Below, in pieces: positions 16,841-43,466 of a stretch of DNA of 64,000 bases. The DNA comes from Candidatus Ruthenibacterium avium (GTDB lineage Bacteria > Bacillota > Clostridia > Oscillospirales > Ruminococcaceae). A program made the position numbers and the translations under genes. The stretch lies in contig DWYA01000077.1 of NCBI GenBank assembly GCA_019118905.1, positions 4,956-68,955 on the forward strand. Direction: 5' to 3'. The notes beneath the pieces were generated by a model, which saw only the letters and a list, made by a program, of their open reading frames with translations, was not told the DNA's origin and did no database searches. How positions within the stretch are numbered: the stretch's first letter is position 1; each line of letters opens with the position of its first letter.

Positions 16841-16877
16841 AATCCGCTCTGCATATTTTGCGCAGAGCGGATTTTTT
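16841..16877 (+). terminator. Intrinsic terminator after gnpA
   Basis: aatccgctctgc/gcagagcggatt stem plus T tract. Confidence 0.8.
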
Positions 16878-16910
16878 ATGCCTTAAAACAACTTTTGGGT
16901 GTAAAATTGC

Positions 16911-16939
16911 TTTACAAAAACAACTTTTAGTAGTAAAAT
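16911..16939 (+). promoter_or_regulatory. Promoter of the S24 repressor, with an operator candidate in the spacer
   Basis: TTTACA, 17 bp, TAAAAT; caacttttagtag at 16921-16933 and a weaker copy at 16889-16901. Confidence 0.65.
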
Positions 16940-16982
16940 GAAGAAAACAAACCGCTTTTGCAGAAAGCAGGACAAGGAGTGG

Positions 16983-17594
16983 ATGCCTGTGTTTGCACAG
17001 AGATTGAAAGAACTGCGCAAGCAAAACGGCCTTTCTCAGGCCAGTTTGGCGCAGCAGCTGGGAATGACTCAGCAGGCGGTCGGCAAGTGGGAGCGTGGAA
17101 CGGCAACTCCAGACCCGCAAACCATTGCAAAATTGGCGGAAATTTTCAATGTGCCGAGCGATGTATTATTGGGGCTGGATGCAGGCAGTATTCGGCCTTA
17201 TTCATCCGGGCAGGAATTTCTGGTACCGATTTTGGGTACTGTACGTGCCGGATATGGGTTATTTGCCGAACAGGAGGAACTGGGCCGAGAGTATGCGCGC
17301 GTCAAGGACCCAGAAAGCTACTTTTATTTAGAAGTCAAAGGGGACAGCATGGAGCCGCGTATCTGTGAAGGTGATTTAGCTTTAGTCCATCGACAAAATA
17401 CGCTAAATTCCGGCGACTTAGGTGTGGTAGTATTTGGAGAAGGCGAGGGAACCTTGAAGAAATATGTCATCAAGGGCGACACGGTTGTGTTGCAGCCCTT
17501 TAACCCCGCTTACCCACCCCAGATTTTGACTGGTGAGGATTTAAACTCATTATTTATTGCCGGAAAAGTAGTGCAGACCATTCGACGCTGGTAA
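16983..17594 (+). CDS. CI/LexA-like repressor: XRE HTH plus peptidase S24
   Basis: RLKELRK..GLSQ..LA..LG.TQQAVGKWE HTH; Ala-Gly cleavage site in VRAG; catalytic Ser in GDSM and Lys in TLKK. ATG 16983 follows an AAGGAG RBS. Confidence 0.9.
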   Translation: MPVFAQRLKELRKQNGLSQASLAQQLGMTQQAVGKWERGTATPDPQTIAKLAEIFNVPSDVLLGLDAGSIRPYSSGQEFLVPILGTVRAGYGLFAEQEELGREYARVKDPESYFYLEVKGDSMEPRICEGDLALVHRQNTLNSGDLGVVVFGEGEGTLKKYVIKGDTVVLQPFNPAYPPQILTGEDLNSLFIAGKVVQTIRRW

Positions 17595-17595
17595 A

Positions 17596-17633
17596 AATAA
17601 CTATTAGTATAAATTATTATACTAATAGTTATT
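17596..17633. repeat. Perfect 17-bp AT-rich inverted repeat with a 4-nt spacer
   Basis: aataactattagtataa (17596-17612), atta, ttatactaatagttatt (17617-17633). Confidence 0.92.
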
Positions 17634-17677
17634 ACACAAGACGGCGAAACGGCAATCACGAAACGGGGGACGGGATC

Positions 17678-19015
17678 ATGGATTTGATGCAAAAGCTGAA
17701 TATTTTGGCCGACAGTGCGAAATATGATGTGGCCTGTACCTCGTCCGGGGTACAGCGCAAGGGCAATGGCTCCGGGATCGGGAGCACGGCGGCACAGGGC
17801 ATTTGCCATGCTTTTTCTGCGGATGGACGCTGCATTAGTCTATTAAAGGTGCTTTTAACAAATTTTTGTGTGTACGACTGTAAATACTGCGTCAACCGTC
17901 GTTCACGCGATGTGCCGCGCGCCGCGTTTTCACCCAAAGAATTGGCTGAACTCACCATCGAATTTTATCGCCGCAATTACATCGAAGGTCTTTTCTTGTC
18001 CAGTGCAGTTTGCGGCAGTGCGGACAATACCATGGAGCGTATGATTGAAGTGCTGCGGCTGCTGCGGGAAGAATACGGCTTTCGCGGTTATATTCACGCC
18101 AAAACCATTCCCGGCGCCAGTGCCGCGCTGATCGAGAGAATGGGGCTGTTAGCAGACCGCTTGAGCGTTAACATCGAACTGCCAAGCGAAGAAAGCCTGC
18201 GCCGTTTGGCGCCCGAAAAGACAAAGGCGGGTATTTTGGCGCCCATGAAGCAAGTGCGCATTGGAATTTTAGAAAATCAAACCGACTTGGTTCGATATCG
18301 CCATGCGCCGCAGTTTGCGCCCGCAGGTCAAAGCACACAGATGATTGTGGGGGCAAGCGGGGAAAGCGACCGCCAAATTTTACGTTTGACGCAGGGCTTG
18401 TACAATCGCTATCAGCTCAAGCGAGTCTTTTTTTCCGCCTATATCCCCGTGGTACAGGATGCAGCACTGCCCGATGCGCAAACACCACCGCCGCTTTTGC
18501 GCGAACATCGGCTGTATCAGGCGGATTGGCTGCTTCGCTTTTATGGGTTCCATGCAGATGAATTGCTGGATGAACAGCAGCAAAACTTTGAACCTTACTT
18601 AGATCCAAAATGTAGTTGGGCACTGCGCCATTTGGAAGAATTTCCGGTGGATGTCAACAAATGTACTTATGAGCAGCTTTTGCGCGTGCCGGGTATCGGG
18701 GTAAAAAGCGCGCGCAGGATTTGCACTGCACGTCGGGCAGGGCGTTTGTCTATGCTGGACTTGAAGCGCTTAGGCGTTGTGCTCAAGCGCGCCCAGCACT
18801 TTATTATTTGTTCTGATTTTGGGCTGCGTCGTTTTGCCGCGAGGCCCAACCAAAGCCAAATTGTACACGCCTTGCTGGACCCACAGGCGTTTCATTTCGG
18901 CTATGAACAGCTTTCCATGTTTTCACCGGAGGAAGGGGTGCAAAGCCCCAACAAGCAAGTATGGATTGCAGAGAAAAGGGGGGAGGCAGCAGAATGCCTT
19001 TTGCGTCAGATATAA
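17678..19015 (+). CDS. Putative DNA modification/repair radical SAM protein with HhH (TIGR03916-like)
   Basis: KLNILADSAKYDVACTSSG N-terminus, CxxxCxxC (CVYDCKYC), RLHRLYQADWLLRFYGF-like segment and HhH LLRVPGIG. Confidence 0.88.
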   Translation: MDLMQKLNILADSAKYDVACTSSGVQRKGNGSGIGSTAAQGICHAFSADGRCISLLKVLLTNFCVYDCKYCVNRRSRDVPRAAFSPKELAELTIEFYRRNYIEGLFLSSAVCGSADNTMERMIEVLRLLREEYGFRGYIHAKTIPGASAALIERMGLLADRLSVNIELPSEESLRRLAPEKTKAGILAPMKQVRIGILENQTDLVRYRHAPQFAPAGQSTQMIVGASGESDRQILRLTQGLYNRYQLKRVFFSAYIPVVQDAALPDAQTPPPLLREHRLYQADWLLRFYGFHADELLDEQQQNFEPYLDPKCSWALRHLEEFPVDVNKCTYEQLLRVPGIGVKSARRICTARRAGRLSMLDLKRLGVVLKRAQHFIICSDFGLRRFAARPNQSQIVHALLDPQAFHFGYEQLSMFSPEEGVQSPNKQVWIAEKRGEAAECLLRQI

Positions 19016-19821
19016 GATATTTGTATGATGGAAGCTTTGAAGGCTTTCTGTCTTGCGTATTTGATGCAGTTTACAGCAGAACCGTTCCCGTGGACATGTG
19101 CGAACAGTCGATTGCACAGCCAAGCTTTTATCAAGATATGTGGGTTTCTACGGATTTGGAACATGCACAGCGTGTTTATGATTCCATCCCCAAAAAGATT
19201 TGCCCAGATGCTGCCGAATTGGTGCGTGATGCATTTTGCAGCTGTGTTCCACAAAAGGAATTGCTGATTTTTCGCTTTTTAATTTTTGGCTATCGTTACG
19301 GCAAACAAGTATACTACATGAGAAGCCATGCACGAGTGGCGCCTTTGTATGAAGCACAGCGCCATTTGCATAACGAGGCGCACTTGCTGCAAGGTTTTGT
19401 TCGCTTTACCGACACAGGCAGAGCGCTGGTGGCCAAAATTACGCCTAAAAATTTTGTTTTGCCTTATTTAGCGCCGCATTTTTGCGAGCGCTATGCCACA
19501 GAAGATTTTTTGATTTATGATGATACTCACGGTGTCGCCTTGATGTGGAAGCAGGGTGTGGGCAGTATGCTCCCCTTAGAGGCTCTTGAAATGCCGCCTG
19601 TGACGGAAAAAGAAGCGCAGATGCGCGCGCTGTGGAAAAGCTTTTATCAAACGATTGCAATTAAAGAGCGCGAAAACCCGGTATGCCGCCGCACCCACTG
19701 CCCAATGCGCTATTGGAGCAATATGACGGAGTTTTTGCCGGAAGTTCCTATTCATACGCCTCAGTCTCTTTCGGCGCCGCGTTCGGACTGGAATGAACAG
19801 CCGTGGATTGAATTGCCATAA
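18994..19821 (+). CDS. DUF4130/TIGR03915-like putative DNA metabolism protein
   Basis: YDGSFEGFLSCVF, EAHLLQGFVRF, HF..RY and LWK.FY..IAI.ER.NP..R....P.RYW motifs; coupled to the radical SAM gene. Confidence 0.82.
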   Translation: MPFASDIRYLYDGSFEGFLSCVFDAVYSRTVPVDMCEQSIAQPSFYQDMWVSTDLEHAQRVYDSIPKKICPDAAELVRDAFCSCVPQKELLIFRFLIFGYRYGKQVYYMRSHARVAPLYEAQRHLHNEAHLLQGFVRFTDTGRALVAKITPKNFVLPYLAPHFCERYATEDFLIYDDTHGVALMWKQGVGSMLPLEALEMPPVTEKEAQMRALWKSFYQTIAIKERENPVCRRTHCPMRYWSNMTEFLPEVPIHTPQSLSAPRSDWNEQPWIELP

Positions 19822-19873: not shown

Positions 19874-19913
19874 AAAAAGCTAGGAGAAAGCAGCCGCTTT
19901 CTCCTAGCTTTTT
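19874..19913. terminator. Bidirectional terminator between the convergent DUF4130 and MCP genes
   Basis: aaaaagctaggagaaagc/gctttctcctagcttttt. Confidence 0.85.
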
Positions 19914-42278: not shown

Positions 42279-43466
42279 ATGGCTGAAAAGAAGCCCTTGC
42301 CGCCCGTAGAAAAGAAAGCGGGAAATGAAAAGAAAAATGCATTGGAAACCGCGCTTTCGCAAATTGAAAAGCAATTCGGAAAAGGCGCTGTGATGAAGCT
42401 GGGGCAAAACGTGACCATGCAGGTGGACGCCATCAGCACGGGCAGCCTGTCGCTGGACTTGGCGCTGGGCATCGGCGGCTTGCCGCGCGGCCGTGTGGTA
42501 GAGGTGTACGGCCCGGAATCTTCCGGTAAAACCACCTTGGCGCTGCACTGCATTGCCCAGGCGCAGAAAAACGGCGGCGAGGTTGCGTTTATCGATGTAG
42601 AACACGCGCTCGACCCCGTGTATGCCAAAGCGCTGGGCGTGGACATCGACTCTTTGCTGGTCAGCCAGCCGGATACCGGCGAGCAGGCGCTGGAAATTTG
42701 TGAAGCGCTGGTGCGTTCGGGCGCCATTGACGCCATCGTTATCGACTCCGTTGCCGCTATGGTTCCCCGCGCCGAAATTGAGGGCGAAATGGGCGATTCT
42801 CACGTCGGTTTGCAGGCGCGTTTGATGAGCCAGGCGCTCCGCAAGCTGACCAGCATCATCGGCAAAACCGGAACCGTTGCCATTTTCATCAACCAGCTGC
42901 GTGAAAAAGTGGGCGTGGTATATGGCAACCCCGAAGTAACCACGGGTGGCCGTGCTTTGAAGTATTACTCCTCTGTGCGCATTGATGTGCGCCGCGTGGA
43001 GGGTCTCAAGGATTCCAGTGGTGCATTTATCGGCAACCGCACCCGCGCCAAAGTGGTGAAAAACAAGGTGGCTCCCCCGTTTAAGGAAGCGGAATTTGAC
43101 ATCATGTTCGGTCAAGGCATTTCCAAGACAGGCGAGCTGGTGGATTTGGCGGTTAAGCTTGGCTTTATTCAAAAGAGCGGCGCGTGGTTCAGCTACGGTG
43201 AAACGCGCTTGGGTCAAGGCCGCGACAACACCAAGAATTATTTAGACGAGCATCCCGAGTTGTTTGCCGAGATTGAAACCTTGGTGCGTGAAAATGCCGA
43301 TAAGCTGTATGCCGGAAAGCCCAAGGCAAGCGGTAAGAAGGCCGCCAGCTTGGACGATGCCCCCGCAAAAACAGAACAGGCCGCCCCGGCAGAACCGGAA
43401 AAACCGGCGGAAAAGCCCGCCCGTGCACCCAAAGCCAACATTGATATTATGGTGGAGGATGAATGA
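42279..43466 (+). CDS. recA: Recombinase RecA with a Pro/Ala/Lys-rich C-terminal tail
   Basis: [20 protein letters not shown] and [11 protein letters not shown] motifs; ATG 42279 follows a GGAGG RBS. Confidence 0.98.

Follow-up and report, generated by a model that had tools for sequence, protein, structure and literature searches.

The window analysed here is a 64-kb stretch (64,000 nucleotides) of contig DWYA01000077.1 from Candidatus Ruthenibacterium avium. This study was concerned with the unit in the region 16885-19821 of the window, where three genes on the plus strand lie between two terminators: a repressor gene, a radical-SAM gene and a DUF4130 gene. The repressor joins an XRE-type helix-turn-helix (HTH) domain to an S24 peptidase domain. 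It is likely to be the LexA substitute of its lineage, and would shut off its own three-gene operon and uvrB until damage triggers its self-cleavage. The features central to this reading are the following.

16888..16902: predicted upstream operator O2, ACAACTTTTGGGTGT, 9/10 to ACWAC-N5-GTWGT
16911..16916, plus strand: -35 hexamer TTTACA of the operon promoter (promoter scan, TTTACA-N17-TAAAAT, 10/12 matches)
16920..16934: predicted main operator O1, ACAACTTTTAGTAGT, 10/10 to ACWAC-N5-GTWGT, filling the promoter spacer and abutting the -10 hexamer
16934..16939, plus strand: -10 hexamer TAAAAT (promoter scan)
16983..17594, plus strand: XRE-HTH/peptidase S24 repressor of the autocleavable type, 203 amino acids (Pfam, residue alignment, PHROG)
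17678..19015, plus strand: TIGR03916 radical-SAM protein, 445 amino acids (649.5 bits, cut-off 343.5; Pfam Radical_SAM and HHH_3)
18994..19821, plus strand: DUF4130/TIGR03915 partner, 275 amino acids (234.6 bits, cut-off 112.25; DUF4130 E 2.1e-46)

The repressor and its operon

The open reading frame of the repressor is listed as 16938-17594. Its ATG at 16938 falls inside the -10 hexamer, so the most likely start is ATG 16983, or the alternative GTG 16989, behind the ribosome-binding site (RBS) AAGGAG at 16974-16979. Pfam identified HTH_3 at residues 8-62 (E 2e-18) and Peptidase_S24 at residues 82-197 (E 4.6e-24). Ala89-Gly90, Ser122 (in GDSME) and Lys159 align to the cleavage site and catalytic dyad of Thermotoga maritima LexA and of lambda cI, the latter alignment spanning residues 11-197, which confirms the intact Ala-Gly site and Ser/Lys dyad reported in the initial annotation. 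These residues are common to at least 90% of 39 orthologs. Orthologs of the repressor were collected both within its taxonomic family and among public genomes; their identity is 51-93%, and Ruthenibacterium, Allofournierella and Anaerofilum are among the hosts.

The S24 domain, with its Ala-Gly site and Ser/Lys dyad, is as in canonical LexA, but the N-terminus is HTH_3 and not the winged helix of PF01726. The TIGR00498 score, 77.2 bits, falls short of the cut-off (110.95), and the match is confined to the S24 half (model positions 79-201). In addition, no GAAC-N4-GTTC was found upstream of the repressor gene. An XRE HTH followed by an S24 peptidase (PF01381 and PF00717) is the phage CI/434-type arrangement, and the best PHROG match of the repressor is phrog_4 (E 8.6e-49); identity to real phage CI-like repressors is 34-36%, at most 36%. 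The cro-like divergent gene and the phage genes of a prophage immunity region are missing at this locus. By its sequence, the repressor is a CI/434-type protein that lies outside any prophage. One 4.6-kb contig from human faeces labelled "Bacteriophage sp." (MT839076.1) encodes an ortholog at 58% identity; this contig is probably a bacterial fragment filed as phage.

The radical-SAM protein belongs to TIGR03916 by its score, by its CxxxCxxC motif (C64-x3-C68-x2-C71) and by its helix-hairpin-helix domain (HHH_3). Its partner belongs to TIGR03915 by its score and by the adjacent TIGR03916 gene, and Pfam found no UDG domain in it. The DUF4130 gene overlaps the end of the radical-SAM gene by 22 nt, which suggests that the two are translationally coupled. 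Neither protein matched a PHROG family, and no error-prone polymerase was seen at the repressor locus. A radical SAM/DUF4130-UDG operon is a published, recurrent member of the SOS regulons of several phyla (PMC8565304), and, according to the prediction of a 2026 preprint (10.64898/2026.08.19.745780), the radical-SAM and DUF4130 proteins form a tight complex able to bind single-stranded nucleic acid.

The promoter TTTACA-N17-TAAAAT at 16911-16939 is the sole strong promoter of the unit, and the three genes most likely form a single operon, which is predicted to be damage-inducible. The unit is bounded by two further features.

16841..16880, plus strand: intrinsic terminator of the upstream lacto-N-biose phosphorylase gene (inverted repeat 16841-16852/16862-16873, 100% complementary, then a T-run)
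19874..19913: terminator-like stem of 18 pairs, called by the scan on the minus strand, where it ends the convergent chemotaxis gene

The first of these is the 5' limit of the repressor unit. The reverse complement of the second stem is likewise followed by a T-run, and this stem probably ends the repressor operon as well. The flanking genes encode, by Pfam, lacto-N-biose phosphorylase and a methyl-accepting chemotaxis protein. Pfam and PHROG identified no phage genes among them, in agreement with the initial annotation.

Operator boxes at the repressor and at repair genes

The initial annotation described a 13-bp box with an ACT-WWW-AGT core in the promoter spacer (16921-16933), a weaker copy at 16889-16901 and two copies before the radical-SAM gene (17598-17610 and 17619-17631). 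All four were reproduced, as were the 14/17 match between 16917-16933 and 17594-17610, the spacings of 32 and 21 bp, and the exact reverse complementarity of the last two boxes. The predicted operator, however, is a 15-bp dyad, ACWAC-N5-GTWGT, of which the ACT-WWW-AGT core is the inner part on the same axis: box 16921-16933 represents the inner 13 bp of O1. Thus, the site stood but its supposed specificity did not, since the conserved bases are the outer AC and GT. Among sites that match at 9/10 or better, positions 1, 2 and 15 are invariant, position 14 varies once and the inner five positions are free. The weaker copy at 16889-16901, when read as 16888-16902 (O2), is also a predicted site and matches the family consensus at 9/10. 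The centres of O1 and O2 are 32 bp apart, and O2 is conserved at L037, the ortholog with 93% identity, where it reads ACAACTTTTAGGTGT. The window contains three copies of ACTWWWAGT, each within the 16885-19821 unit (shuffle mean 0.78; 5 of 100 shuffles reach three). A genome-wide scan found it only 13 times in 2.27 Mb, where it is under-represented, and it is not conserved in orthologs. It was therefore dropped as a motif in favour of ACWAC-N5-GTWGT.

Conservation was counted as sites of at least 9/10 within 160 nt upstream of the repressor in 39 non-redundant orthologous loci. At least one box was present in 34 of the 39 and at least two in 28. In the orthologs the repressor promoter takes the form TTTACA...TATAAT with the dyad in its spacer, and in most of them the promoter-proximal site abuts a -10-like hexamer (TATAAT and variants). 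The proposal of an operator in the repressor's own promoter spacer, distinct from the GAAC-N4-GTTC box of Firmicutes, is supported by these counts and by the 10/10 match of O1. Such a conserved own-promoter dyad points, on comparative grounds, to the autoregulation expected of LexA-substituting S24 repressors. Most genera also have a second, divergent promoter, TTGACA...TATTAT, with a further copy of the box in its spacer; between this promoter and that of the repressor stands a half-site box, ACAACTTTTTTTA.

The exact form ACAAC-N5-GTWGT occurs three times in the source genome: as O1, once inside a coding sequence and in the promoter of uvrB on another contig, so that two of the three copies are in promoter spacers. 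At uvrB the box fills the spacer, as TTGATT, then TTTACAACTTAAAGTAG, then TAAAAT. In 21 ortholog-bearing genomes there are 66 exact ACAAC-N5-GTTGT sites, 45 of which fall in five recurring contexts: the repressor locus (26), upstream of recA (12), upstream of uvrB (3), upstream of an unlinked radical-SAM gene (1) and beside paralogous prophage-type repressors (3). The exact box upstream of recA is present in 12 of 20 ortholog-bearing relatives, plus one more, where it usually overlaps the -35 hexamer, and in none of 13 LexA-bearing control genomes. The exact box upstream of uvrB recurs in three further genera. The same operator is thus found at uvrB in the source genome, and at recA, uvrB and radical-SAM genes in relatives.

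A search for additional targets with relaxed 9/10 boxes returned 21 matches in AT-rich parts of the source genome, none of them convincing. At L109 (G099:C1:1682323-1682367), in a complete genome, two exact boxes 30 bp apart lie between the gene for a 420-amino-acid coiled-coil-like protein and a small open reading frame; the locus may represent a further, unannotated target of the repressor. In the three prophage-like paralogs L137 (G134), L138 (G192) and L139 (G149), at 30-38% identity, the divergent control region contains exact ACAAC-N5-GTTGT. These phages either have the same specificity as the host repressor or are connected to the damage switch of the host.

The most informative comparison is the operator swap at unlinked radical-SAM genes, whose promoters carry the box of whichever repressor the genome holds. 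For example, in LexA-less genomes these promoters contain ACAACTGTTGGTTGT abutting TATAAT (G002), ACAACTTAAAGTAGT (G165) and ACAACTATTGGTTGT (G134). In LexA-bearing genomes they contain GAAC-N4-GTTC, as GAACATATGTTC (G137) and GAACATACGTTC (G059), or a near match to it, GAACAAATGTTT (G200). Thus, the damage regulon constantly includes the radical-SAM/DUF4130 pair, and one regulator can stand in for another. In about 21 of 31 orthologs the repressor gene either immediately precedes the radical-SAM gene on the same strand or is no more than about 1.1 kb away from it, and of the 23 genera in which both genes occur, most have an ortholog of 51-68% identity at the radical-SAM locus. The gap between the two genes is as short as 36-65 bp, which argues for co-transcription. 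In Allofournierella and relatives (L008/L040, L009/L041, L011, L015, L039) a phosphoglycerate-mutase-like histidine-phosphatase gene (RHGxTxWN) lies between them, and at L039 a HIT-like gene does so as well; both may be extra members of the operon.

LexA absence and the proposed damage response

No canonical LexA was detected in the source genome, which is 98.3% complete; the best PF01726 match scored 15.7 bits. The LexA DNA-binding domain was likewise not found in the genus-mate. Among 201 genomes of the family, this domain is present in 5 of the 32 that carry a repressor ortholog (absent in 27) and in 121 of the 169 that do not (Fisher p = 3.4e-9, phylogeny ignored). The only TIGR00498 match above the cut-off in the source genome (116 bits) lies on contig C84, and it was rejected as a canonical LexA. 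This protein (C84:39438-40034) is a second XRE/S24 repressor, 37% identical to the one in the window, that faces a cro-like HTH gene in divergent orientation and has three boxes of the CCCATTTTTGGGAT type. Because of this HTH partner and these different boxes of its own, it is prophage-type and not LexA, and it is probably a prophage immunity switch of different specificity.

The domains and catalytic residues, the promoter and box geometry, the conservation, the co-occurrence and the operator swap are observed, and from them we infer how the repressor would act. A repressor dimer would bind the 15-bp dyad ACWAC-N5-GTWGT, and O1, bound between the -35 and -10 hexamers with O2 upstream, would occlude the promoter to RNA polymerase. 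One co-transcribed operon of repressor, radical-SAM (TIGR03916) and DUF4130 (TIGR03915) genes would be silenced in this way, and the uvrB promoter, with its identical arrangement, would be silenced too. Upon DNA damage, RecA filaments (RecA*) would stimulate self-cleavage at Ala89-Gly90 by Ser122/Lys159, the promoters would open, and the induced radical-SAM/DUF4130 pair would then act on DNA. The predicted regulon of the source genome comprises the repressor operon and uvrB only.

The evidence also leans towards a wider reading, in which the XRE/S24 family would be the SOS repressor of the LexA-less branch of gut Ruminococcaceae-type Clostridia that includes Ruthenibacterium, Allofournierella, Anaerofilum and relatives. 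After the loss of LexA, the operators of recA, uvrB and the radical-SAM/DUF4130 genes would have been rewritten from GAAC-N4-GTTC to ACWAC-N5-GTWGT, and the box would also stand before a candidate division-inhibitor gene. In the source genome the system would have shrunk to its own operon and uvrB, with recA outside and a hairpin as a second layer of control over the radical-SAM genes.

By its sequence features, the repressor fits the functional class of LexA-substituting S24 proteins, which comprises HdiR, the non-canonical LexA of Bacteroidetes and FddR. It resembles the Bacteroidetes protein (Sanchez-Osuna et al., NAR 2021, PMC8565304) in its PF01381-type HTH and S24 domains with intact cleavage residues, in the absence of canonical LexA, in the autoregulation through an N5-spaced dyad (predicted here) and in a DNA-repair regulon that includes a COG4277 radical-SAM protein and its UDG/DUF4130 partner. 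However, the Bacteroidetes operators are GGA-N5-TCC or CTAA-N5-TTAG (PMC8565304), and the present repressor belongs to a Clostridia host, heads the radical-SAM operon and has a minimal regulon in this genome. As operator and phylum differ, it is not placed in the Bacteroidetes clade, and the likeness between the two is one of features. The known SOS operon of TIGR03916 and TIGR03915 (COG4277 with COG1573/DUF4130; PMC8565304) has the same overlapping genes under a damage-type repressor, but the DUF4130 protein in the window has no UDG domain and the operon includes its own repressor gene. According to PMC8565304, HdiR of Lactococcus and Streptococcus is also a phage-type S24 repressor of LexA-less Firmicutes that controls itself and a very small damage set. 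As described there, it differs in its umuC-type mutagenesis cassette and its Clp processing, in place of which the radical-SAM/DUF4130 genes and uvrB are found here, and recA in sister genera. FddR of Francisella (PNAS Nexus 2026, PMC13148647) is a chromosomal phage repressor that likewise runs a small DNA-damage network without LexA, but it is confined to one gammaproteobacterial genus and belongs to another repressor family with another motif. Lastly, lambda cI and the phage 434 repressor share the domain order, the catalytic residues and the two operators on one helix face (predicted here), but the repressor in the window has no cro partner, no prophage and host genes as its targets.

A search of a paper library for the ACWAC-N5-GTWGT operator, the repressor clade or a damage-response regulator of these gut anaerobes returned nothing relevant. 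If the reading is correct, this would be a further independent case of a phage-type repressor taking the role of LexA, and an unusually legible one, as the box before one and the same radical-SAM gene changes with the repressor of the genome. Prophage induction, mutagenesis and antibiotic tolerance are all under the control of the damage response, and a defined operator with a short target list would allow regulons to be read directly from the genomes of these gut anaerobes. It would also give the radical-SAM/DUF4130 pair, which is widespread, a further setting tied closely to DNA damage, with cultured relatives in which to induce and study it.

In Firmicutes with canonical LexA, the lexA gene can stand opposite a divergent division-inhibitor gene, as in lexA-yneA of Bacillus subtilis and lexA-sosA of Staphylococcus aureus. 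In sister genera of the source genome the repressor is similarly divergent from a small gene of about 80-110 amino acids on the opposite strand, about 100-450 nt upstream (L009, L012, L017, L021, L024, L032, L047 and others), and the promoter of this gene carries the box in its spacer. The arrangement differs from the LexA examples in its XRE-type DNA-binding domain and in the lack of GAAC-N4-GTTC. The small, hydrophobic protein has two predicted membrane helices and a loop with the motif G/A-x-E-G. Its tail is basic and very often ends in Ala-Ala (RAA, HAA, QAA), resembling a protease tag. By analogy of layout, it may be a damage-induced division inhibitor. The gene is absent from the window, and tblastn gave no significant match in the source genome. 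The copy in the window is thus a reduced version, without the small divergent membrane gene and with a recA that has no box.

Competing explanations and the palindrome before the radical-SAM gene

Several points weigh against the repressor as a LexA substitute at the head of a broad regulon. The recA gene of the window (42279-43466) has no box of 9/10 or better within 400 nt upstream, so that a box at recA was rejected for the source genome, and the same is true of the genus-mate. Most of the sister genera that hold the repressor have a perfect box at recA; in this genus, recA apparently either dropped out of the regulon or was never part of it. For this reason the network in the source genome is minimal, and "master regulator" overstates it here. 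The exact-box counts are barely above those of the reversed-pattern control (66 and 47 in 21 genomes), and the case rests on where the boxes are and not on their number. The anticorrelation with LexA takes no account of phylogeny, and four or five genomes carry both regulators, so the repressor is not strictly a replacement. A simple operon is further complicated by the many orthologs in which the gap between the repressor gene and the radical-SAM gene holds a hairpin that resembles a terminator and has a T-run.

A different explanation would make the repressor the leftover immunity gene of a decayed prophage, with no role for the host and with boxes that are relics of phage operators. The phrog_4 match, the 34-36% identity to real phage repressors and the same ACAAC-N5-GTTGT boxes at prophage-like paralogs of sister genomes would all agree with such an origin. 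The relic is already disfavoured, however, and we regard it as very improbable: no phage genes flank the repressor, 51-68% identical orthologs keep to the radical-SAM locus in most of 23 genera, the boxes stand on recA, uvrB and unlinked radical-SAM promoters, and the true prophage-type repressor of the genome, on C84, has different boxes of the CCCATTTTTGGGAT type. It is also quite improbable that the protein represses these genes but needs more than RecA*-stimulated self-cleavage for its inactivation, namely a further protease or another stress signal. HdiR requires further Clp processing for full derepression, according to PMC8565304, and recA is outside the regulon in the source genome; against this, at least 90% of the orthologs have the Ala-Gly site and the Ser/Lys dyad, and the targets are classical SOS genes. 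The initial annotation had proposed a stand-alone, dedicated unit; on this model the repressor would be private to its cassette, act through the ACT-WWW-AGT core at its own promoter and through the 21-bp-spaced pair before the radical-SAM gene, and run beside a normal SOS response. The confinement of all three ACTWWWAGT copies of the window to the unit, the 14/17 match of the flanks and the presence of two dyad-like sites (8/10) at the corresponding position of the 93%-identical ortholog speak for this proposal. It is nevertheless unlikely, as the genome has no canonical LexA, the full 15-bp box also stands at uvrB here and at recA, uvrB and unlinked radical-SAM genes in sister genera, and the inner N5 of the dyad, including the T and A of ACT and AGT, is free in orthologs whose outer AC and GT are invariant. 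The proposed pair before the radical-SAM gene was also not supported as a clear operator. These two boxes lie within the following feature.

17596..17633: perfect palindrome or hairpin with 17-nt arms (17596-17612 and 17617-17633, 100% complementary) and a 4-nt loop

Each arm matches ACWAC-N5-GTWGT at only 7/10, without the invariant outer bases, and a score of 7 is reached at about 1.1% of genome positions. Of the orthologs, only the one with 93% identity has anything similar between the repressor and radical-SAM genes, and its arrangement is different: two tandem AWTAC-GAATA-GTATT units (8/10), 18 bp apart. The palindrome is unique in the genome, and a repeated mobile element was therefore rejected. 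There is evidence from the sequence that it is functional in some way. An RNA stem-loop that sets the ratio of repressor to enzymes, as a leaky terminator, a processing site or a stabiliser and not as an operator, is a serious contender that we place slightly short of an even proposition. The palindrome begins 2 nt past the repressor stop codon and folds at -17.2 kcal/mol (z -7.2), the different sequence of the closest relative still gives a 15-pair hairpin at the same position (z -3.3), and 7 of 18 other orthologs with a folded gap have a hairpin there with at least six T in the next ten bases. However, the hairpin in the window lacks a downstream T-run and could act as a leaky terminator at best, no Rfam family matches the hairpin or the radical-SAM leader, and its two internally dyad-symmetric units in an operator-like 5-N5-5 frame would also suit a protein site. 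For the palindrome itself, a lineage-specific element that works through the RNA, by adjusting read-through or stability between the repressor and radical-SAM genes, is most likely, and a weak auxiliary site for the repressor is the alternative. For the unit as a whole, we favour a single operon that is transcribed from the O1/O2 promoter and in which a structured element separates the repressor gene from the radical-SAM gene.

In the orthologs, the gap hairpins are often no more than 30 nt away from the radical-SAM start codon, too close for a separate promoter to fit between. At L008, L009, L011, L013, L031 and L048 the radical-SAM RBS is directly preceded by a conserved CTTTTTT-RYRCC-TTTTTTG, with a GC-rich hairpin ahead of it. 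This element lies within the last 60 nt or so before the start of the gene and recurs across genera, even where another gene intervenes. It may be a conditional terminator or a leader.

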